In this document: piece after piece, positions 1-20,683 of the stretch
Numbering within the stretch: the first letter of the stretch is position 1
Layout: the number at the start of each line of letters is the position of its first letter
DNA from: an uncultured virus (IMG/VR IMGVR_UViG_3300030060_005500)
Lineage: Duplodnaviria; Heunggongvirae; Uroviricota; Caudoviricetes
IMG/VR virus record: IMGVR_UViG_3300030060_005500
Direction: 5' to 3' (one strand)
Length of the DNA stretch: 20,845 bases
Translations under genes and position numbers: made by a program
The notes under the pieces: generated by a model
Told to the model about the DNA's origin: nothing
Databases searched by the model: none
The model's input: the letters and a program-made list of their open reading frames with translations, nothing else

Positions 1-78
1 CATGGCAAATTGTAAGTTGAGTTGAATTATCTGCGTGTAGGATACGCAGCCCCCATAAGATAAAAACTATCTACACAC

Positions 79-414
79 TCAAAGCTTCTCTTCCTTAAAC
101 ATGATACCAGGAGAGACTTCTTCGTAACCTTCTTTCAAAGGGTCAGGTTTACGATTACGTTTGGGCATCTCCACAGGTAGCAAGCGATGTTGCATATGTC
201 TGGTACCGGATGCGGAACCTGAGTCATCCCATTTTACAGAATAATAATAGTCGACTCTGCCATTGGCTTGAGTACGTTTGTCAACAGATTCGACGATACC
301 GTAACGTGGTTTGTAAGACTTATTCAGCATACGTTCCTGTGGTATGCTCGGCGTCTTCTTGAGTACACGATCACCTATCTGGTAACGTTGACCAACTTTC
401 TTGTAATTAGGCAT
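79..414 (-). CDS. Hypothetical early protein (111 aa), probable SH3/KOW/Tudor-like beta-barrel
   Basis: Start moved from 603 to ATG at 414, which overlaps the upstream stop (ATGCCTAA) and follows AAGGAGG. The pattern YQIGDRV...GIVESVD...YYYSVKWDD is typical of small SH3-like barrels (fold is inferred). Confidence 0.7.
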   Translation of the reverse strand: MPNYKKVGQRYQIGDRVLKKTPSIPQERMLNKSYKPRYGIVESVDKRTQANGRVDYYYSVKWDDSGSASGTRHMQHRLLPVEMPKRNRKPDPLKEGYEEVSPGIMFKEEKL

Positions 415-709
415 CAGGTTTCTTTTCCTCCTTTGGTTCTGTTTTAGGTTTAGATTGTTCTTTGCTGTGCAAAGTGTATTGTTTTGACAGGCCAGTGCCG
501 GATACAGACGTAAGACCCTGTACTGTCTGTTTGTGTAGGTTGTAGTTGATATTGCTCTGCAGCTTGCCAAGTTTGCCTTGAGCTGTAATAGATTCAATAC
601 CATGACTCATAGAAAGATTGACTTTGACATCACCCAGTCCGAATGGAAGTTTGATGATGGGTACTCTTTTCTTGAATCGAAAACCTTTAGTAGGTCTGTC
701 TTTAGCCAT
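407..709 (-). CDS. DUF4236-like protein (100 aa)
   Basis: Start at ATG 709 (GAGG SD, ATGGCTAA overlap with the upstream stop). GFRFKKRV...VKVNLSMSHGI...TSVSGTGLS resembles the DUF4236 pattern GFRFRK..(V/L)N.SKSG...PGTGLS, recalled from memory. Confidence 0.6.
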   Translation of the reverse strand: MAKDRPTKGFRFKKRVPIIKLPFGLGDVKVNLSMSHGIESITAQGKLGKLQSNINYNLHKQTVQGLTSVSGTGLSKQYTLHSKEQSKPKTEPKEEKKPDA

Positions 710-953
710 TGGGTTCCTCTGGTTTGTGGTCATCAGGTAGGAGGTTGTCTGTAAGAGATGATAGGTCTACGCCGTCGGGTAAGTTGTCCATCTGGAACAA
801 CTCCCCCGTCTTCTCGTCATAGTATCCTCCTACAAACCCCATTCCTTTCTGATCCGCAAACTCTTTCATCTTGGCAACCAGCTGCATCCTCTTGAGCCTG
901 TTGTGATCAATGGCATCGGGTATGCGTGGCTTGTTGTCTTTGCCTTTAGTCAT
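702..953 (-). CDS. Hypothetical early protein (83 aa)
   Basis: ORF track; GAGGT SD upstream; 8-nt start/stop overlaps at both ends. Confidence 0.8.
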   Translation of the reverse strand: MTKGKDNKPRIPDAIDHNRLKRMQLVAKMKEFADQKGMGFVGGYYDEKTGELFQMDNLPDGVDLSSLTDNLLPDDHKPEEPNG

Positions 954-1116
954 TGGGTTTACCTCTGGGTTGTTGTAAGCGTTTGAATTTGAATTCGTTG
1001 GTGATACCAGGTGCTAGTACAATGCTGACGACCACAGCATCATCTTTGATAAACACACTGGCATGACTTGGATTTGAGAAATCGTATTGCTGATGTTCAG
1101 ACTTTGTATCCTTCAT
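946..1116 (-). CDS. Small hypothetical protein (56 aa, MKDTKSEHQQYDFSNPSHASVFIKDDAVVVSIVLAPGITNEFKFKRLQQPRGKPND), not in the ORF track
   Basis: Translated by hand. It fills the gap exactly and its stop overlaps the next start (ATGACTAA). Confidence 0.7.
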   Translation of the reverse strand: MKDTKSEHQQYDFSNPSHASVFIKDDAVVVSIVLAPGITNEFKFKRLQQPRGKPND

Positions 1117-1177
1117 TAATTATAAAAAACAATAGGAGAATAGTACAGAAAAAATTCAGTGATTTCTACCTATGTTT

Positions 1178-1402
1178 TCATATGGAAGTAAAAGATTTCC
1201 TTTCGTAATAATCAGTCATTTTCTCCTTGAAATCCTTTACTGAGACACACGAAGAAACCAACACGAAATCCATGGTGATCCATGAATTACCTCTGAGTTT
1301 TTGATACTCAAGAGTGTAAGGTTTCTTACTGGGTACATGCATTACTCTGTCGGGTGTGTTATTTTCCCGAGGGTAATACCAAGGTCGAATAGTAGGTGCC
1401 AT
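1178..1402 (-). CDS. Hypothetical early protein (74 aa, MAPTIRPWYYPRE...)
   Basis: Start moved to ATG 1402 after an A/C/U-rich leader (TTCAAACTACATACATTTTT). The upstream extension coincides with a stem-loop. Confidence 0.65.
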   Translation of the reverse strand: MAPTIRPWYYPRENNTPDRVMHVPSKKPYTLEYQKLRGNSWITMDFVLVSSCVSVKDFKEKMTDYYERKSFTSI

Positions 1403-1427
1403 AAAAATGTATGTAGTTTGAATAAGA

Positions 1428-1473
1428 AACTGGGACTTACAGATGATGTTTGGGGTCATCAGCATGCCCAGCT
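1428..1473 (-). ncRNA. Intergenic structured RNA element (stem-loop, possible pseudoknot)
   Basis: Minus strand: AGCTGGG/CCCAGTT outer stem and TGATG/CATCA inner stem, starting 5 nt after the stop of 1479..1910. Confidence 0.45.
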
Positions 1474-1478
1474 AGTAG

Positions 1479-1910
1479 TTACCAAGAGCAGTAGTACAGT
1501 ATTCTCATGCCTTTCTTGAGTTCTTCTTCAGCTTTGTCGCAGAACTCGATGTCGTTTTCTCTGTAGTATTCATCTGAGGGATCACCCCAGAAAAAACCAG
1601 AGGCATCTCCATAGCCTCCATTGAGAGTCTGGTTCTTGATATCCAATCGTAATCTTTGGATGTCTTCAGCCTTCAGTTCTACGATTTCATCATTGAATGG
1701 ATCTTGCATGTATGACTGAGCCTGATAGCCTTCTCCTGTATGTGGATCAGGCTTGGCAGCATCACCATACTGACGTTTTCTCCATAGACGTTCCATCCAG
1801 CCCTGTAGGTTTGGATGTTTACGCCAGTAGTAAAGTTCTTTGTCTTTTTCCCAATCAATTGTGTTGGTGGTACCAGCTGATCGAGAAAAAGCATACTGGT
1901 CTAGTCCCAT
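1479..1910 (-). CDS. Conserved phage protein of unknown function (MGLDQY...YWRKHPNLQGWM...GFFWG...Y.CSW family)
   Basis: Motifs match a widespread phage family I recall being loosely annotated 'phosphoglycerate kinase'; at 143 aa it cannot be a true PGK. Confidence 0.85.
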   Translation of the reverse strand: MGLDQYAFSRSAGTTNTIDWEKDKELYYWRKHPNLQGWMERLWRKRQYGDAAKPDPHTGEGYQAQSYMQDPFNDEIVELKAEDIQRLRLDIKNQTLNGGYGDASGFFWGDPSDEYYRENDIEFCDKAEEELKKGMRILYYCSW

Positions 1911-1933
1911 AGTTTTAGTAATGAATTGAATAA

Positions 1934-1997
1934 TGACCTGGCATCATCAGGGCAGGGCGGTCAGTTCCTACCGACTCCCCGAAGGGAGTTTCGCCAG
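1934..1997 (-). ncRNA. Type II hammerhead ribozyme with loop I/3'-tail pseudoknot
   Basis: Minus strand: CUGGC-GAAA-CUCCC(UUCG)GGGAG-UC^GGUAGG(AACUGACCGC)CCUGCC-CUGAUGA-U-GCCAG-GUCA. All core nucleotides are present, with a GUC triplet (cut between 1973 and 1972), three stems, and UGACC in loop I complementary to the 3' GGUCA. Confidence 0.93.
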
Positions 1998-2435
1998 TTA
2001 CTTCTTGGCAGCCTCTAACTCAGCTTGCTCGAAAGCTTCTTCTTGTTCGATTTCAGCTCTTAACTCTTCAAGCTCAGTTTCAGATAGCTTTGGTGGTGCA
2101 ACTTGTGCAGGCTTAGTAGATACACGCTCGGTGTATGCATAGTTGAGAGAAATCTCAGGATGCTTGAGCGTTTTGTTCACACCATCTTGGGTGTAATGAG
2201 ATCTAATACCGGTAAGATCAATGTCACCATGGACAACTACACGGGTACCAGTTAGGTCTTCACCATTCTGGGTAGCTTTGAGCATACCGTTGTTGTCGGT
2301 GTACTTGATACGAATGCTGTTCTTCTTGCTATCCTCTGCGGCAACAGTGACAGCAAGGAAGGTATCGTACTTGTCTTTGACACCATCGACGACTTTGACA
2401 TTGATGATGTTGCCAGTAAAAGTAGCTTTCTGCAT
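1998..2435 (-). CDS. SSB-like OB-fold protein (145 aa)
   Basis: Start moved to ATG 2435. MQKATFTGNI, FLAVTVA and GTRVVVHGDI parallel the SSB strands (MNKVILVGNL, NFSLA, GSLVYVEGRL); acidic C-terminal region. Confidence 0.6.
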   Translation of the reverse strand: MQKATFTGNIINVKVVDGVKDKYDTFLAVTVAAEDSKKNSIRIKYTDNNGMLKATQNGEDLTGTRVVVHGDIDLTGIRSHYTQDGVNKTLKHPEISLNYAYTERVSTKPAQVAPPKLSETELEELRAEIEQEEAFEQAELEAAKK

Positions 2436-2480
2436 TTGATTTACAGTTGAGTAGGTGGTGCCCATCTCCACAGGGGGCAA

Positions 2481-2534
2481 GGTCGAAGGAGGGAATCGAA
2501 CCCTCCACTGGTGAACCAGTTCCAACATCTCGAC
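2481..2534 (-). ncRNA. Minimal tRNA-like structure (no D-stem, no canonical anticodon loop, no encoded CCA)
   Basis: Minus strand: GUCGAG-AUGUUGGA-ACUGG(UUCA)CCAGU-GGAGGG(UUCGAUU)CCCUCC-UUCGAC-C. Acceptor 6 bp plus T-stem 6 bp gives 12 bp; canonical T-loop; GG in a D-loop-like linker. Confidence 0.75.
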
Positions 2535-2537
2535 TAT

Positions 2538-2618
2538 CTATCTCCCATATGCTCCAACGTTCTTAAGGAATATATAGAGCAGGATGGTGATACAGATGAT
2601 GACGATGAGTGTAGTCAT
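2538..2618 (-). CDS. Single-TM micropeptide (26 aa, MTTLIVIICITILLYIFLKNVGAYGR), not in the ORF track
   Basis: ATGA overlap with the upstream stop; about 15 hydrophobic residues followed by K/R; stop lies 3 nt before the tRNA-like element. Confidence 0.65.
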   Translation of the reverse strand: MTTLIVIICITILLYIFLKNVGAYGR

Positions 2619-2803
2619 GCTATGAAGTCAGGATCACTGAGTACAGTTAAACCGCATTGCATAACTTTGGCAAGATCCTTGTCACACTCTGGCATATCTT
2701 GAATCTGGAAAGACCAGAACAGGAAGTTATCTGAGTTGTGACCTAACTGTTGTACCTCAGATAATATCTGGGTGAGTTCAGGAGTTAGTACAGCAAGAGA
2801 CAT
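2615..2803 (-). CDS. Hypothetical early protein (62 aa)
   Basis: ORF track; GAGGT SD in CAACCCAGAGGTAACT-ATG. Confidence 0.75.
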   Translation of the reverse strand: MSLAVLTPELTQILSEVQQLGHNSDNFLFWSFQIQDMPECDKDLAKVMQCGLTVLSDPDFIA

Positions 2804-2827
2804 AGTTACCTCTGGGTTGAATTGAAT

Positions 2828-2886
2828 TAAGTTATGAGGGGAATCCCTCAGTCTGCCTCAGAGAAGCAGAGGGAGAGAATCACTTA
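2828..2886 (-). ncRNA. Structured leader or processing element with alternative folds
   Basis: Hairpins UCUGC/GCAGA and UGAGGG(AUUC)CCCUCA closed by UAAGU/ACUUA; alternative long helix UCUCUC-CC-UCUGC/GCAGA-CU-GAGGGA. Confidence 0.4.
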
Positions 2887-2893
2887 CCCAAGT

Positions 2894-2909
2894 ATTTAAA
2901 TCCCATACA
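2894..2909 (-). promoter_or_regulatory. Repeated motif TGTATGGGATTTAAAT, copy A (candidate early promoter or operator)
   Basis: Exact 16-nt match to 3177-3192; intergenic, upstream of a leftward gene. Confidence 0.5.
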
Positions 2910-2933
2910 GCTAGGAGCGTAGTCAGGGAGTTG

Positions 2934-3143
2934 TTAGAAAGGAATATATTCAGTAGATTTATGGACTAATAACTGACAGTCACGTAATTGAGACCAGCAT
3001 CCACTACCAAGATATATACTTCTACTTCTAAGCTTGAAGCGTAAATAATAGAAGGCATATGCAAAAGGCATTAGCAGATGATTGGTGCGACATACAACAC
3101 TGTCATAATCACCAGAAGAAACTACGAGAAATAATTCAGACAT
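2934..3143 (-). CDS. Hypothetical early protein (69 aa)
   Basis: ORF track; AT-rich leader; lies between two copies of the repeated motif. Confidence 0.6.
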   Translation of the reverse strand: MSELFLVVSSGDYDSVVCRTNHLLMPFAYAFYYLRFKLRSRSIYLGSGCWSQLRDCQLLVHKSTEYIPF

Positions 3144-3176
3144 AATTAATAAATAAGTAGTATCGAGTACTCAAAA

Positions 3177-3192
3177 ATTTAAATCCCATACA
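3177..3192 (-). promoter_or_regulatory. Repeated motif TGTATGGGATTTAAAT, copy B
   Basis: Exact 16-nt match to 2894-2909, 33 nt upstream of ATG 3143. Confidence 0.5.
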
Positions 3193-3231
3193 CATCTGCG
3201 AGTGGGCAAATGGTGTACAGGATCTATTTAA

Positions 3232-3306
3232 CGAGCGAACGAAGTGAGCGAGTAGCGGTCCGTTGTTATATACAACAGCAGCGAGCGTTAGCGAGCGGGG
3301 TGCACG
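3232..3306 (+). repeat. GAGCG repeat cluster 1 (pas/ssi-like)
   Basis: CGAGCGAACGAAGTGAGCGAGTAGCGG and AGCGAGCGTTAGCGAGCGGGGTGCACG, all on the + strand. Confidence 0.6.
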
Positions 3307-3446
3307 TCAAGCACTTCTGCTGCTCGATGCATCTTCTGAGATACATACTTACGACTAGTGTCCAGCCAGGCGTTGCCGGCTGAACGTGCAGTAGTGTACA
3401 TAGGCTTGAAGTCAGCCTTGAGACCTTTAATAGTGTTGGAAAACAT
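3288..3446 (-). CDS. Small hypothetical protein (52 aa, MFSNTIKGLKADFKPMYTTARSAGNAWLDTSRKYVSQKMHRAAEVLDVHPAR), not in the ORF track
   Basis: Translated by hand. The leader ACATTTATTGCC-ATG resembles ACAATTTGCC-ATG at position 3, and codon style matches the neighbouring genes. Preferred over the track ORF 3266..3451. Confidence 0.6.
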   Translation of the reverse strand: MFSNTIKGLKADFKPMYTTARSAGNAWLDTSRKYVSQKMHRAAEVLDVHPAR

Positions 3447-3623
3447 GGCAATAAATGTTAACGATGTAATGATTTGGTTAAGCTCGAAGACGTAACCTGA
3501 GTAGTAGCAACGTTTGTTACAGGTGATTACAGTTCTATCTCGGCTCTACTGAGCGGAGGATCTTGACCTAATTTCGTGCGGGAATCAAGGGAAACTCGAC
3601 GAAAACTCGGCGAAAGATCAAAT

Positions 3624-3651
3624 AATGTAACTAATTGTAAACAAATGTTAC
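3624..3651 (-). promoter_or_regulatory. HLR1-type (RpaB) direct repeat
   Basis: Minus strand GTAACATT-TG-TTTACAAT-TA-GTTACATT. The last two octamers match (G/T)TTACA(T/A)(T/A)-N2-(G/T)TTACA(T/A)(T/A) exactly, and a third half-site is in 10-bp phase. Confidence 0.55.
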
Positions 3652-3672
3652 TATCATTAACTCTATTCTTCT

Positions 3673-3681
3673 AATCCCATA
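3673..3681 (-). promoter_or_regulatory. Partial copy C of the repeated motif (TATGGGATT)
   Basis: 9-nt core shared with copies A and B, upstream of the first leftward gene. Confidence 0.35.
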
Positions 3682-3705
3682 GATATATGCCGAAGTTAAG
3701 TACCT

Positions 3706-3745
3706 AGCGAGCGACCAACGGAAGCGAGCGGAGGAGGGGTGCACG
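3706..3745 (+). repeat. GAGCG repeat cluster 2 (pas/ssi-like)
   Basis: AGCGAGCG-ACCAACGGA-AGCGAGCG-GAGGA-GGGGTGCACG, an imperfect direct repeat of 3280-3306. Confidence 0.6.
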
Positions 3746-3928
3746 GTACTTCTTTTTTTTCTATACGGTATGTGCAACGGGCGGGTGGGTGGAGAAGAGT
3801 CGAGTAATTTTGTACCCTATTTGGAGCTATAAGGAGCCGATTTTGTAGTAAAAAACCCTAATTAGCCCAAAAAATCACCCAAAAGTGCCGACCTTCAGGT
3901 GATTAAAGTTTCGATTATTAGATATTAG

Positions 3929-4141
3929 TTATTTTTCTTTGCTTTTCTTAAATTTACCGGCCGCTTTTGCCGCTTTACTGAATGCTTCCCCATCTGGAAC
4001 TTGAAATGCCAGTTCTTTCTTAGCATTTGTAACAAAATCACGTACTTCCAGGGAGTCTTTACCCTGTGCTGCCATGTCTAAAGCTTTGTTTTTAATAGCT
4101 TCTAGTCCATCAACTTTATTTTGGCGGGATTCAACATCCAT
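3929..4141 (-). CDS. Hypothetical helical protein (70 aa) with basic tail
   Basis: ORF track; divergent from the late operon; possible TG-A-TAGCAT -10 on the minus strand near 4175-4183. Confidence 0.75.
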   Translation of the reverse strand: MDVESRQNKVDGLEAIKNKALDMAAQGKDSLEVRDFVTNAKKELAFQVPDGEAFSKAAKAAGKFKKSKEK

Positions 4142-4240
4142 TATTGGTATTTTCTAAGTAATTTCCCTGATTTAATGCTATCACGAGTAGATTTGTTACT
4201 CATAGAATGGACAGAAGAGAAATGTGACGGCTAAGTGTAG

Positions 4241-4822
4241 ATGTCTTCCTCATATCAGGCACAATATTATTCACAACAGCCAGATAATAACAATCTGGGG
4301 GTTTTAGCAACTGGAACCCTAGCAGGAGGTGGTCTTGCTACTCTTGCAGCTTTAACTTTGATGAGAAGAGGTAAAAATCTCTCTGCAACAACGGATCTTA
4401 GTCAGAAAGGTGCGTCTGCTATATCAAATGTAGCTGGAAAGAAATATACTGTAAAAAAGTCAGGTCCAGTGCCACCTAGCACACCTGCAGAAAATGTATT
4501 TACTAATATTCCTGAAGGACAAACTCAACCTGTGGTAAGACCAAGTGATACTGTTCTATCTCCAGGTAGATCTCTTCTGTCAGGACCGGCTTTATCTCAA
4601 GCTGGTAAACCTGCTGAACTTCCAAAACCTGTTAAAGGATCTATACAAGAAAGAGAAGCTCAAGATAATTTAAGAAGATATATAAGTACGGTACAAGCAG
4701 GGATATTAGCTAAAGATGAAACGTATTATGCAGCACTTAAACAAGCTAAAGACTTAGGTATAGGAGTTACTTTAGATCCGTCTATGAAACGTACAAATAA
4801 AGACAATAAAAGAAGATCATGA
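4241..4822 (+). CDS. Hypothetical protein with N-terminal Gly-rich hydrophobic segment (putative virion/ejection protein)
   Basis: LGVLATGTLAGGGLATLAALTLMRR; first gene of the + strand module. Confidence 0.7.
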   Translation: MSSSYQAQYYSQQPDNNNLGVLATGTLAGGGLATLAALTLMRRGKNLSATTDLSQKGASAISNVAGKKYTVKKSGPVPPSTPAENVFTNIPEGQTQPVVRPSDTVLSPGRSLLSGPALSQAGKPAELPKPVKGSIQEREAQDNLRRYISTVQAGILAKDETYYAALKQAKDLGIGVTLDPSMKRTNKDNKRRS

Positions 4823-13455: not shown

Positions 13456-14982
13456 GTGCCTTCTTATACACATCTTGCTTATAGGCGTAACGCTAAAGCG
13501 GCGGCTCGTAAGCAGCAGATTAAGAAACCTAAAAATTTAGAATCCATACAGAAAGCTAGAGAAGATTTTGGATATTTCTGTGAATTTGTAGCCGATAAAG
13601 CACCAGCAGAACATCATAAGACGTGGCATAGACATTTCATAACTAACGAAAATAGTAGCTGTTTATTAAAGATTGCAGGCCCCAATATTGATCTGTTAGC
13701 TCCCAGAGGGTCAGCTAAATCGACTGTATTAGGACTTCTTACCGCTTGGGCTATTGGTATTCATACACAGGCTAAACAGCCCTTACAAGTCTTATATCTG
13801 TCTTACACCGTTGATATTGCCAGATCTAAGTCAGCAACAATCAAAAGAATCATCGAAAGTAAAAGATATCAGGAAGTTTTTCCAAAAGTAAGATTAATGA
13901 AAAACGTGACCAGTAATGAATACTGGTCGATAGATCATAGGTTTGCAGGAATAGATACTACCGGAGAAGAACAGTTTACATTATGTGCAGCTGGTCTGAA
14001 GGGTTCTGTTACATCTAAACGTTCTCATCTGGTTATGATTGATGACGCTATAAAATCATCAGCTGATATTGCTAATCCAGATATTAGGAATCAGATGAAA
14101 GAGAACTGGAATGCTGTCATAGCTCCCACTATGTTTGAAGGAGCTAGAGCTATTTGTTTAGGTACTAGGTTTAGGCATGATGATATCCATTCCACTACTT
14201 TTAATGAACAGAACAATTGGACGCAGATTGTTTTATCTGCGATATTAAATGATTCTAAAACAGGAGAGGAAGAATCTTACTGGCCTGAGATGTGGTCTCT
14301 TGAATATCTAAAAGAAAAGAAGAGACAGGCACCGATAGCTTTTTCTTTCCAATACATGAATCAGATAGTTAGACAGAATGAATTATCACTAGCTCCAGAG
14401 TTAATTGTTAAAGCGGAGATATCTACTGAGTTTGATACGTTAGGTATAGGAGTCGATTTATCAGCTGGAGTAAAAGAAAGAAATGATTACACTGTCATGG
14501 TGTTAGGCGGACGAATAGAAGATCGTATTCACATAATTGATTATCGGCGTATTAGGGTTATGGGTAACTTAGAAAAATTAGATGCCCTAAAAGAGCTTCT
14601 ATACGACTGGTCGATAATAGGTAAAGATGCTAATGAAAATTATTTTCCCACCTACTCTACATGTGATATCTGGTCAGAGGCTGTGCAATATCAAGCATCT
14701 TTGGAAGCTGACTTTAAACGAGTATGTCAAAACAATGAAGGTTTATATAATTTAATCTGGCATCCCGTGAAAGGATTCAGAGCAGATAAATTAGCACGTT
14801 TTAGAGGAATAATGGGTATGTTCGAAGATAGAAAGATAGTGTTTAATAGGTTTAGAAACTTTACCAGTATGTTTGAAGAACTTACCAACTTTGGTGTAAG
14901 TGGACATGATGATTGCGTTGATGCTTTAGTTTGGCTTGTAAACGGATTAGCTCGTAAAGGACAACTTCATTTAGACTTTTAA
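13456..14982 (+). CDS. terL: Terminase large subunit
   Basis: Walker A LLAPRGSAKST, Walker B LVMIDD, motif III LGTR, RNase H-like GIGVDLS and HDDCVDAL; GTG start. Confidence 0.95.
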   Translation: MPSYTHLAYRRNAKAAARKQQIKKPKNLESIQKAREDFGYFCEFVADKAPAEHHKTWHRHFITNENSSCLLKIAGPNIDLLAPRGSAKSTVLGLLTAWAIGIHTQAKQPLQVLYLSYTVDIARSKSATIKRIIESKRYQEVFPKVRLMKNVTSNEYWSIDHRFAGIDTTGEEQFTLCAAGLKGSVTSKRSHLVMIDDAIKSSADIANPDIRNQMKENWNAVIAPTMFEGARAICLGTRFRHDDIHSTTFNEQNNWTQIVLSAILNDSKTGEEESYWPEMWSLEYLKEKKRQAPIAFSFQYMNQIVRQNELSLAPELIVKAEISTEFDTLGIGVDLSAGVKERNDYTVMVLGGRIEDRIHIIDYRRIRVMGNLEKLDALKELLYDWSIIGKDANENYFPTYSTCDIWSEAVQYQASLEADFKRVCQNNEGLYNLIWHPVKGFRADKLARFRGIMGMFEDRKIVFNRFRNFTSMFEELTNFGVSGHDDCVDALVWLVNGLARKGQLHLDF

Positions 14983-16622: not shown

Positions 16623-18965
16623 ATGGGTAACAACGATCCAAAAACTAGACTAAAAGAGATAGTAGACTCTTACCTCAATAAAGATGGTGGAGGAATGATA
16701 GACACTGGGATAGTGGCTTCACATCTTGCCCAGATGAAACTTTTCGGAATCAGACAAGGTGTAGAATTCTTCCCAGCTCAGGATAACTTTGGAAATCAAA
16801 GAAAAGATTTCGTAGATAGAGTGATTAAATATAACCAGCTTGATACTAGACTAGATTCTATATGGGATTATTTTCTTTGTGATGGACAAGGCATTTTTTA
16901 CATCAGACCCACTAAGACTAACTACAGACTATATTATTTTCGTAAGCATGAATATAGAAGCTATTACAATATTGACGGCCAGCTTGATGAAGTTGTAATT
17001 ATCTATAGCTATAAAGTAAGACAGGGCTCAGGTTATCAACAGGAGGTAATTAATCAAAGTATTAGTGGTCCTGATATGTTAGGGGCAGGAGGAGCTAAGA
17101 GATATATAAGATTATCTATTAAGAAGAAAATAATACAAGAGACCCATTCTGAAGGTGAAATATCCTTTGATTCCACCTATCAGGGATTAGCTGGTAAAAC
17201 TAAGACATTTACTAATACTCTAGGATTTATTCCTTGTGTAGAGATATTCAATAATGCAAAAGGATTCGCAGCTGAAGGCGTAGGTGAATTTGATGCGTTA
17301 GCTAATCATATCTGCACTCATGATGAAATGATACGCACTATGCGTAAGAACGTTCAGTTCTTTGGAAATCCTACATTATTATCCTCAAGACCTAAAACAG
17401 ATTTAATGGAGTCAGGAGAGTCTGTTGTTCAAAGGCCATCTATTGCAGCTAACTCTGGTTTTGCAGGAATGAACCCATTAAGCCAGTCTCGTTTTAAAGC
17501 TGATCCTCTAGCTCGTGGTGTTGATGGGCAGATACGAGTACCAAGAGTTATAGCTAATTTAGAACCGAATGATCGTGTAGGTTACATTGTTCCTGACGCT
17601 ATCACTGGTGATCAGAATTCTTTTTCTAGACAATATAGAGAAGAAATAAGAACAGCATTAGGTGGTGTTGACGAGTTGTCGATATCAGCTGGAGTAACAG
17701 CCACTGAATATAAATCTCTATTTGGTAGAGTTGCAGCCACTGCTAAGAAAAAGTCTGCTTCTATATATACATACGGTTTATGTCGTTGCTTAGAGTTAAT
17801 TATTTTCCAAGAAGAGCAACTCTTCCGTGAGACATTAGCTGCTGCTGTTGGGTTAGAAAAACCAGTTGATTTACCTGAGGATGCTTCTCCAGAAGAAATG
17901 GAATTATATGAAGGAGCTATGAAGTTTTATGAGGAGCAGATAAAGCAGTTACTCATGGCTTCTTTACAGGCTCAGCAGATACCGCCCGGAGTTAAAGGTT
18001 TAATCCCTGACGGGGATGTCAGCATCCAGTGGAGATGGCTTGGTCCTGTTTACGAAGATTCAACACAAGATACACTGAATAATTCTATTGTTGTAAGGAA
18101 TCTTCAAGAATTAGGCGTTGATAGCATAGAAGCATTGAAATACCTCTTTCCGTCTAAAACGGATGAGGAAAGGGCAGCCATGTTATCAGGGTTTCCTTTC
18201 AGAATGGTGAACGAACTGCAGGGTGCATACTCTCAGTTTGCAAAGTTAGTGGGGGGAATGATGCAGACCCCTCATCCGCAATCACCGGATTTACCGATGG
18301 CTGCAGATCCAAGATTGGATTTAACACCATATCTGTATCGAACATTAGAAGCATTACAAAAGGAGATGAGTTATGCAGGACGCTACCGTCCAATCGACCC
18401 CACAGATGAGCCAAGCACCAGCAGCGACAGTAGCTCCAAGCAGTTACGTGGCACAGGCTCCGCAGGCACCGGCACCAACTCAGGCACCGGCACCTCAGGC
18501 TTATCAAGTGGGTACGAGCTACCCACAAGCGGTACCTCAGGCAGCCCCCAGCTACCAATCAAGCCCTACTCAGTACGCCCCCCAATCCCAACCGGCGGCG
18601 GCACCGGAGGGCAATCCATGGGAATCGGCGTTCAACAAGGTAATGAACGTCCTGAGTACACCAGTTCAATCCCCGTTCCAGGGTCAACCCTCTCAGACGG
18701 AGACACAATACGCACCAGCGAATTACGGACAAGCCAACAGCGGCCTAACTACGCCAGCATCGGCTCCCCAGACCTTGTCAGCCAGCCAGGTATCCTCAGC
18801 CAACTCTTCCCAAACCTCCTCGAATCTCTCAGCGGCGGAGCTAGACGCAATCCAGACACAGATAGGAATGAGTCCAGAAAGCAGACAGGTGATGGACGCG
18901 TTCGGGGTAGAGGCACCAGCCGTTCTAAACCAGTACGCCCTAAACCTAGAAGGGATGCTAGATAG
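16623..18965 (+). CDS. Portal protein with a long C-terminal extension overprinted on the scaffold gene
   Basis: About 590-aa globular region between TerL and scaffold/MCP; LGFIPCVEIFN, GEFDAL and QFFGNPTL resemble portal motifs. Confidence 0.75.
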   Translation: MGNNDPKTRLKEIVDSYLNKDGGGMIDTGIVASHLAQMKLFGIRQGVEFFPAQDNFGNQRKDFVDRVIKYNQLDTRLDSIWDYFLCDGQGIFYIRPTKTNYRLYYFRKHEYRSYYNIDGQLDEVVIIYSYKVRQGSGYQQEVINQSISGPDMLGAGGAKRYIRLSIKKKIIQETHSEGEISFDSTYQGLAGKTKTFTNTLGFIPCVEIFNNAKGFAAEGVGEFDALANHICTHDEMIRTMRKNVQFFGNPTLLSSRPKTDLMESGESVVQRPSIAANSGFAGMNPLSQSRFKADPLARGVDGQIRVPRVIANLEPNDRVGYIVPDAITGDQNSFSRQYREEIRTALGGVDELSISAGVTATEYKSLFGRVAATAKKKSASIYTYGLCRCLELIIFQEEQLFRETLAAAVGLEKPVDLPEDASPEEMELYEGAMKFYEEQIKQLLMASLQAQQIPPGVKGLIPDGDVSIQWRWLGPVYEDSTQDTLNNSIVVRNLQELGVDSIEALKYLFPSKTDEERAAMLSGFPFRMVNELQGAYSQFAKLVGGMMQTPHPQSPDLPMAADPRLDLTPYLYRTLEALQKEMSYAGRYRPIDPTDEPSTSSDSSSKQLRGTGSAGTGTNSGTGTSGLSSGYELPTSGTSGSPQLPIKPYSVRPPIPTGGGTGGQSMGIGVQQGNERPEYTSSIPVPGSTLSDGDTIRTSELRTSQQRPNYASIGSPDLVSQPGILSQLFPNLLESLSGGARRNPDTDRNESRKQTGDGRVRGRGTSRSKPVRPKPRRDAR

Positions 18966-19519: not shown

Positions 19520-20683
19520 GTGTTCATTGATAATGACTTTCCAAAAATATTAGGTGCGGAACTATATCGTCCCCACCCAGCTTATGTTGCGGAAATGGCT
19601 ACCGAACCTGTTGTTGTTCATGACTTCAGCAGACAGCCTGGTCAAACCGTTCAGCTTGATAGATACAAATTCTGGGGTACACCAGGTACGAAAGATTCTA
19701 GAGAGCGTATTTCTGATCAGACAATTGGTACCGCAAATAGCCGTAACATCACAAAAGAAAAGGTACTTGTAGTACTTAAAGAGTACACAGGTCCTGCAGA
19801 TCCAGGTGATGCTACACAGCCAAGCACATTCAAGATAGCTCGTGAAACATTAGTTACAGCACAACGTCTTCTTTTAGACACTGGTAACTTAAACATGTTT
19901 CACCAGAGTATCGGCTCTCTAACCCTTTTAGACGATTATAGAAGGTGGCGTGATAGAGTCTTCATCGACGAACTTGCAAAAGCAGAAGCTAACGGTTTAT
20001 CCTCCTCTACACAGGGTGGATATTATTTTGCCGGTAGCAAAACAAAAGATTCTTCTGGACGTATTTCATATACAGCAACAGAATATGGTAATCAAGTGCA
20101 GCAGTTCTCAGTTAAGACTGATCTTTTAACTGTTGTTAAAGACTTACGTAAGCGTAACGTTCCAACATATGCAGATGGTCTGTATCGTTGTTTAGTTGAT
20201 CCATCTTTCATGATGCATCTGCGTCGTGACAGTGACTTCAGAGAAATCGCTCGTTACTCTGGTGCTCCAGGACAGGGAATGTATATGGGTAACCCCATGA
20301 TTCCTAACAACGCTAGTTTCTTCCAAGGACCTCAGGCTGGTCAGGCTTACTTCCTAGCAGGAGAGCCAGTTATGCCAACTGGTGTTCAGTTTGAAGGTGT
20401 TAAGTTCTTCGAGACTACTAACTTCCCAACTAAGAACGTAACAGCATCTATTGATGGTGGTAGTAGCTATTCTTCATTAGAAGTAGCACAAGGATTCTTC
20501 TTTGGACCACAATCTCTCGGTGTTGGAATTGGAGGACCAAACGCACAGGTACTAATTAATAACAACGACGATTTTAGCCGCTTTATCATTCTGATTTGGC
20601 AACTATACGCTGGTTTTGAAATTCTTAATAAGGACTTCATCACAACTGCATTTAGTTTCTTAACAGATGACGGTAGTATCTAG
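19520..20683 (+). CDS. Major capsid protein (HK97 fold, N4-gp56-like)
   Basis: 387 aa; GGAGG SD with GTG start; PGQTVQLDRY E-loop-type motif; LRKRNVP...GLYRCLVDP...LRRD pattern; follows portal and scaffold. Confidence 0.9.
   Translation: MFIDNDFPKILGAELYRPHPAYVAEMATEPVVVHDFSRQPGQTVQLDRYKFWGTPGTKDSRERISDQTIGTANSRNITKEKVLVVLKEYTGPADPGDATQPSTFKIARETLVTAQRLLLDTGNLNMFHQSIGSLTLLDDYRRWRDRVFIDELAKAEANGLSSSTQGGYYFAGSKTKDSSGRISYTATEYGNQVQQFSVKTDLLTVVKDLRKRNVPTYADGLYRCLVDPSFMMHLRRDSDFREIARYSGAPGQGMYMGNPMIPNNASFFQGPQAGQAYFLAGEPVMPTGVQFEGVKFFETTNFPTKNVTASIDGGSSYSSLEVAQGFFFGPQSLGVGIGGPNAQVLINNNDDFSRFIILIWQLYAGFEILNKDFITTAFSFLTDDGSI

Follow-up and report, generated by a model that had tools for sequence, protein, structure and literature searches.

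Type II hammerhead ribozymes of the kind represented by the Rfam family RF02276 (Hammerhead_II) and described from bacteria, prophages and metagenomes by Perreault et al. in 2011 (PMC3088659) combine a full catalytic core with a short stem II and a pseudoknot of at least 4 bp, and lie between genes on the sense strand of phage operons; in the same year, and in the same paper, the processing of polycistronic RNAs of phages and prophages was proposed as a role for such hammerheads. According to PMC6765202, in 2019 this role was still proposed and unproven, and the effect of cleavage is given there as unknown for bacterial and phage hammerheads; the twister, pistol and hatchet ribozymes described in that source occupy the same gene neighbourhoods with different folds. 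Cleavage has been reported both in vivo and in vitro for three predicted type II hammerheads of Desulfovibrio vulgaris (cyPhyRNA-seq, PMC8782182). An insertion within the core is described for the (+) hammerhead of CChMVd, a type III viroid ribozyme with loop-loop contacts and a natural extra A (A10); in the account given in section 5 of PMC3705267, citing De la Pena & Flores 2001, an A at this position is moderately slower, C or G is strongly harmful and A10U is 3-4 times faster.

Here we analysed a stretch of 20,845 nucleotides from an uncultured marine tailed phage (henceforth referred to as the window), which contains a type II hammerhead resembling those of RF02276 and Perreault et al. 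(PMC3088659) in topology, full core, short stem II, pseudoknot of at least 4 bp and location between genes on the sense strand of a phage operon. It differs from them in having an extra U after A9, a 6-bp stem I with a 10-nt loop and an Rfam score 5 bits under the cut-off. As in the CChMVd hammerhead of PMC3705267, the insertion is at the identical core position, at which U is compatible with activity, but the window holds a type II phage ribozyme with a pseudoknot and a natural U. Like the D. vulgaris hammerheads of PMC8782182, for which cleavage was demonstrated, it is of type II and lies near phage-like genes. We estimate a probability of about 80% that the element is a genuine pseudoknotted hammerhead of type II, probably an active one, that would cleave co-transcriptionally within a leftward polycistronic transcript. 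It is one more phage hammerhead among thousands and belongs to a known family; what may be new is how U, A and C rank at the inserted position in nature, the association of the extra U with a longer stem II spacing, the abutment on a stop codon and the use of the surrounding block as a joint for recombination.

A complete type II hammerhead between two phage genes

Read on the minus strand, positions 1997-1934 of the window form a complete type II hammerhead between two genes, and the sequence, RF02276, a second model (R1, see below) and the minimum free energy (MFE) fold agree on its extent, which includes the 3' pseudoknot strand. The element begins with the 5' strand of stem II (CUGGC, 1997-1993, with C11.1 at 1993), which directly abuts the UAA stop codon of the upstream gene (2000-1998). 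It continues with GAAA (G12, A13, A14 and A15.1, 1992-1989), aligned to the GAAA of both RF02276 and R1, and with stem III (1989-1974), in which A15.1 (1989) and U16.1 (1974) enclose CUCCC-UUCG-GGGAG (1988-1975), giving 6 pairs in the MFE fold and a UUCG tetraloop. U16.1 is followed by C17 (1973) of the GUC triplet and by arm I (1972-1951), which consists of the 6-bp stem GGUAGG (1972-1967)/CCUGCC (1956-1951) and the 10-nt loop AACUGACCGC (1966-1957), within which lies the 5' pseudoknot strand UGACC (1963-1959). The remaining core, CUGAUGA (C3 U4 G5 A6 U7 G8 A9, 1950-1944), is again aligned to RF02276 and R1 and is separated from G10.1 by the extra U (1943). The element closes with the 3' strand of stem II (GCCAG, 1942-1938) and GUCA (1937-1934), the 3' pseudoknot strand proper being GGUCA (1938-1934). 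The order of parts (stem II 5' strand, G12-A14, capped stem III, GUC, capped stem I, C3-A9, stem II 3' strand) is that of type II, with stems I and III closed by loops, stem II open, and 5, 6 and 6 pairs in the MFE fold. All of the core that a type II hammerhead requires is in place, namely C3-A9 at 1950-1944, G12 A13 A14 at 1992-1990, A15.1-U16.1 at 1989/1974 and H17 at 1973. From the GUC triplet and hammerhead numbering, the scissile bond is predicted between C17 (1973) and G1.1 (1972).

An earlier, sequence-only reading of this DNA had named the CUGAUGA and GAAA core, the GUC triplet, the three stems and the cUUCGg tetraloop, and we found every one of these items in the sequence; the coordinates given in that reading are right. 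Its assignment to the type II topology with a pseudoknot between loop I and the tail is borne out by the sequence, the model matches and the MFE fold, its cleavage site between 1973 and 1972 coincides with ours, and the next ATG, at 1910, does begin 23 nt beyond the element. It was also right that the element is in sense orientation to the operon, the minus strand being implied in that reading and left unstated. A genuine type II hammerhead with an extra U is hereby confirmed.

One part of the earlier description could not be kept as it stood. Stem II (5 bp) and the UGACC/GGUCA pseudoknot (5 bp), as it listed them, are both present as sequences, but G1938 is common to the two, so that they cannot both exist at full length at once. 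By comparison with the family in which GCC, an A and the pseudoknot follow one another, the favoured form is likely a 3-bp stem II, an A linker and the 5-bp UGACC/GGUCA pseudoknot. Most type II hammerheads, though not all, have at least 4 bp connecting loop I with the nucleotides immediately 3' of stem II; in the window, a 5-bp Watson-Crick match of loop I with GGUCA was equalled in 1336 of 100000 loop shuffles (1.3%).

Model scores and predicted folds

At gathering thresholds no Rfam family matched anywhere in the window. A search with RF02276, proposed in the sequence-only reading, did return a full-length match (31.8 bits; E 0.0052 when the whole window is searched and 5.7e-5 when 231 nt are), which is about 5 bits under the gathering cut-off of 37 bits, a cut-off that is operational and not structural. 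The RF02276 alignment assigns the extra U and G10.1 to an insert state and pairs some of arm I wrongly, which accounts for the shortfall. A second model, R1, was built from 78 type II hammerheads with an extra U from other phages, with the copy of the nearest relative left out. R1 gave the element 52.0 bits (rough E 4e-14, model positions 1-71), and the runner-up in the window scored 10.8 bits; because the 20 invariant bases of R1 are those of the search pattern that selected its members, and the window also fits this pattern, part of this score arises by construction. The element has the marks of the extra-U subgroup (CUGAUGA-U-GC, the usual GCC/GGC stem II, an A linker, a pseudoknot and an arm I of about 22 nt), the window itself fitting the pattern by which the subgroup was collected. 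Could the resemblance to a hammerhead be due to chance? The Rfam score, being sub-threshold only, would be in keeping with this, but the idea is already refuted by the RF02276 E value for the window, by the distance between 52 bits and the next R1 score, by the pseudoknot and by the occurrence of the same element in five other records.

When 71 nt are folded, the three-way junction is the MFE structure (-25.5 kcal/mol, z -2.06). Against an active fold stands the result for a longer stretch of 141 nt, whose MFE structure has UGAUGAU of the core paired with GUCAUUA instead. The hammerhead is the only ribozyme detected in the window with Rfam, and no second ribozyme was found at 2800-2960.

The extra U recurs among phage hammerheads

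We scanned IMG/VR with the pattern GCGAAAC..GTC..CTGATGA-x-GC and counted a hit as well-formed when stem II had at least 2 bp and stems III and I at least 4 each. With T as the inserted base, 80 of the 121 loci returned from 49 of the 64 parts of the collection were well-formed. With A or C, 121 loci from 57 of 64 parts yielded 15 well-formed ones (13 unique with A and 2 with C), and the canonical pattern without an insertion yielded 103 from 132 loci in 5 of 64 parts. Extrapolated to the whole of IMG/VR, there would be some 104 loci with U, 17 with A or C and 1300 without an insertion; among well-formed type II hammerheads, the extra-U form is about 7% as frequent as the canonical one. The ill-formed remainder was about equal per inserted base, as expected of a chance background. 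Judged by these natural frequencies, the extra U is a recurrent minority variant, strongly preferred over A or C, and not a defect. The claim of the earlier reading that an extra U sits between A9 and G10.1, at a position where insertions are tolerated, is in accord with U1943 and with its recurrence in IMG/VR; the implication that the U and the element are unusual was overrated, the former being a recurrent variant and the placement of the latter being the norm of the family. In a pattern scan of cellular genomes (5 of 64 parts), 5 of 120 loci were well-formed, and none was related to the window phage.

The natural ranking, U far above A and A above C, agrees with the kinetics described for position 10 of CChMVd in PMC3705267. 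This parallel between base frequencies and kinetics predicts that extra-U forms would be fully active, and we read the U as a tolerated, perhaps favourable, spacer. These data bear on a reading in which the hammerhead has decayed, the U disrupting the metal site at A9/G10.1 and the element surviving as a structured spacer only. A score under the Rfam gathering cut-off is what such a reading would lead one to expect, and other core insertions do lower activity, examples in PMC3088659 being the extra base after A6 and the saltern variants. Set against this, the extra U is about 6 times commoner than extra A and extra C together, the stems and the pseudoknot are kept, the element is found in six records, one of which has compensating changes in stem I, and a U at this very position is reported to raise the CChMVd rate (PMC3705267). 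We regard a crippled ribozyme as very unlikely and favour an active one. The RF02276 model misses extra-U variants, which amount to about 7% of the canonical rate in IMG/VR.

The usual build of an extra-U hammerhead is a 3-bp stem II (GGC/GCC), an A and the pseudoknot. An arm I of 22 nt, as in the window, is the mode in both groups (53/79 extra-U and 68/121 canonical); the window reaches this length with a 6-bp stem I and a 10-nt loop compared with the usual 8 bp and 6 nt. The pseudoknot begins 4 nt after G10.1 in the window and in 26 of the 62 extra-U hammerheads with a pseudoknot of at least 4 bp. Offsets of 4 and 3 nt occurred in a ratio of 26:24 among extra-U and 11:56 among canonical hammerheads (Fisher p 5e-5, for sequences that are non-independent).

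Pairing between the core and the 3' tail was also more frequent in the extra-U group. At least 5 Watson-Crick pairs were found in 19 of 81 extra-U hammerheads, compared with a shuffle mean of 6.0 (maximum 12), and in 8 of 124 canonical ones, compared with 9.2; the 'anti-core' cases are concentrated in related sequences, and the window itself reaches only 4 pairs. The 3' tails of extra-U hammerheads (L053-L173) often contain GCAUC or CAUCAG, the complements of GAUGC or CUGAUG in the core. We considered and rejected the AUG AUG that the extra U creates in the core as a start for the downstream gene: of 78 unique hammerheads, 30 have this frame open, where about one third is expected by chance, clear Shine-Dalgarno and ATG starts lie further downstream, and in the window the frame stops after 10 codons. 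Arrays also occur (L075, L148, L157 and L253), in which several type II hammerheads follow each other a few hundred bases apart: L075 has 3 of them within 1.4 kb, and L253 has 10 matches to the pattern within 2.9 kb. Hammerheads of the L075 and L148 types have a 3-nt loop I and lack the pseudoknot.

Placement in the operon and predicted processing

The phage character of the window is evident from a terminase (13456-14982), a virion protein (16623-18965) and a major head protein (19520-20683), and the stretch is present in marine metagenome runs of several studies. The ribozyme lies inside a leftward string of genes running from 4141 to 79, and no terminator-like site was found on the minus strand in 1-4400. 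The upstream gene occupies 1998-2435 on the minus strand. Its open reading frame in the ORF list runs to 2528, but three relatives (G001, L552 and L553) have TAA at the position of the TAC 2452-2450 of the window, so the gene is likely to start at ATG 2435 and is probably shorter than the listed frame. The downstream gene (1479-1910, minus strand) encodes 143 aa of a phage protein family with relatives in 47 viral loci. Neither flanking protein gave a match in Pfam or PHROG; for the upstream one there is just a weak lead towards an SSB-like protein. Between the ribozyme and the ATG at 1910 lies an A/U-rich leader (1933-1911, minus strand), in which there is no match to a Shine-Dalgarno sequence.

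The position of the element directly behind a stop codon is typical of the family. Among hammerheads with a long upstream open reading frame, the last base of the upstream stop lay between -1 and 6 nt before G11.2 in 50 of 70 with the extra U and in 85 of 103 canonical ones, and the gap in the window is 3. Hammerheads that lack such a frame (8 of 78 extra-U and 18 of 121 canonical) were set aside, and the short flanks of the canonical set made its ORF test weaker. Downstream starts lie 6-86 nt after stem II in the family and 27 nt after it in the window. A start of the ribozyme within a few bases of the stop codon would fix the 3' untranslated region left by cleavage to the stem III hairpin, and this placement offers a practical way to test the purpose of hammerheads in bacteria and phages.

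On the favoured reading, the three helices would form once RNA polymerase has passed 1934, and UGACC of loop I would dock on the GGUCA tail, holding stems I and II parallel. G12 and G8 would then promote the attack of the 2'-OH of C17 on the next phosphate, with the cut falling between C1973 and G1972. For the upstream message this would mean a 3' end 25 nt past the stop codon, formed by the cUUCGg hairpin of stem III and carrying a 2',3'-cyclic phosphate. The downstream message would start at G1972 with a 5'-OH and the stem I hairpin, and a 62-nt leader without a Shine-Dalgarno match would lead to the AUG at 1910. A polycistronic mRNA would in this way be split in two, leaving cistrons that may decay and be translated independently. 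In four metatranscriptome runs, which yielded low-depth contigs of relatives, none bridges the ribozyme or ends at 1973/1972.

The ribozyme lies in a conserved block of a mosaic locus

Five further marine records carry the element in the same slot (G001, L550, L552, L553 and L554). The nearest is G001, which is 84% identical to the window over 1400-2600 and has an identical ribozyme (64/64); identity is also high just upstream (117/119) and in the leader (21/23), and it is 68% in the downstream gene. The identity of the ribozyme in G001 lies within a larger conserved block and is hence no specific evidence of selection on the RNA. A metagenome scan added the other four contigs, all marine and with the same gene order, and the ribozymes of L550, L552 and L554 are identical. 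L553 has a rebuilt stem I, GGCAGUGG/CCAUUGCC, which is fully paired (9 pairs in the MFE fold) and closed by the loop AUGACC; UGACC is thereby kept, and the remainder, including both pseudoknot strands, is unchanged. No phage record in GenBank gave a DNA match to 1400-2600.

The six records share an invariant block, about 110 nt long and with variable flanks, which starts with the final two codons of the upstream gene, ends at codon 5 of the downstream one and comprises CUGCC..AAGUAA, the hammerhead, the leader and ATGGGACTAGA. The records have two types of upstream tail and two downstream alleles, and all four combinations occur (in the window, in G001 and L554, in L550 and in L553), which indicates recombination within or beside the ribozyme block. 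It could accordingly be asked whether the block serves mainly as a homologous linker for allele recombination, or for translational control, with cleavage being incidental. The invariant block between variable flanks and the four combinations of tail and allele speak for this, as does an alternative hairpin that can hide the core. Any conserved functional element, however, would become a point of recombination, and the mosaic is no argument against catalysis; moreover, thousands of unrelated phages retain the full catalytic core in such slots. We hold a reading in which cleavage is only incidental to be very unlikely.

Among 47 viral records with a homologue of the 143-aa protein, 3 had an RF02276 match (G002, which is the same contig as G001, G022 and G032); those of G022 and G032 are outside this slot, and R1 adds one match, L050. 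In G022, a distant relative, the gene for the 143-aa homologue has two ribozymes upstream of it, a pistol (66.1 bits, L022:590-656) and a hammerhead of type II (51.5 bits, L050:1501-1574). An Rfam scan of 20 of the 47 loci revealed manA RNA (69-79 bits) in three relatives (L007, L014 and L022), and a scan of 20 further homologue loci returned nothing, with L043-L048 outside the scan. Two loci contain a well-formed canonical type II hammerhead with stems of 4, 9 and 8 pairs and a fold z of -4.06 (L036:1398-1464 and L041:1398-1464), which RF02276 reported neither at E <= 0.1 nor at gathering.

Other elements upstream of the ribozyme

A tRNA-like element is found on the minus strand at 2534-2482, with a perfect T arm (GGAGGG-UUCGAUU-CCCUCC), an acceptor-like stem of 6-7 bp and a short CUGG-UUCA-CCAG hairpin. 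The segment gave sub-threshold matches to mascRNA-like RNA (23.4 bits, and 26 in G001) and to tRNA-Sec (23.6 bits); ARAGORN called no tRNA at 2534-2482, and the Rfam tRNA models matched there below threshold only. It is kept in five records, in which two changes in the 3' strand of the acceptor are uncompensated. Because the stop codon of the relatives lies downstream of it, the element is probably intergenic; among its possible identities are a processing signal, a tRNA remnant and the core of an attachment site. A more far-reaching scheme, which we consider rather unlikely, would have this element, as a possible substrate of RNase P or RNase Z, and the hammerhead punctuate the upstream gene on both sides, so that one host enzyme and one ribozyme would excise a single-gene mRNA; the hammerhead block would double as a homologous joint for allele swaps, and the extra U would be a spacer that co-evolved with a 3-bp, and not a 2-bp, stem II.

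Further upstream, the minus strand at 2900-2804 forms a conserved structured leader before a 62-aa open reading frame, with alternative pairings among CCCUC, GAGGG and CCCUC and a UCUGC...GCAGA hairpin; it matched no Rfam family and has a fold z of -1.89. An exact 9-mer, TTCAATTCA, is common to this leader (2826-2818) and to the leader that follows the hammerhead (1930-1922). Between the two structured elements, at 2617-2537 on the minus strand, a 26-codon hydrophobic mini-ORF (MTTLIVIICITILLYIFLKNVGAYGR) overlaps the stop codon of the 62-aa frame by ATGA and is 99% identical in G001.
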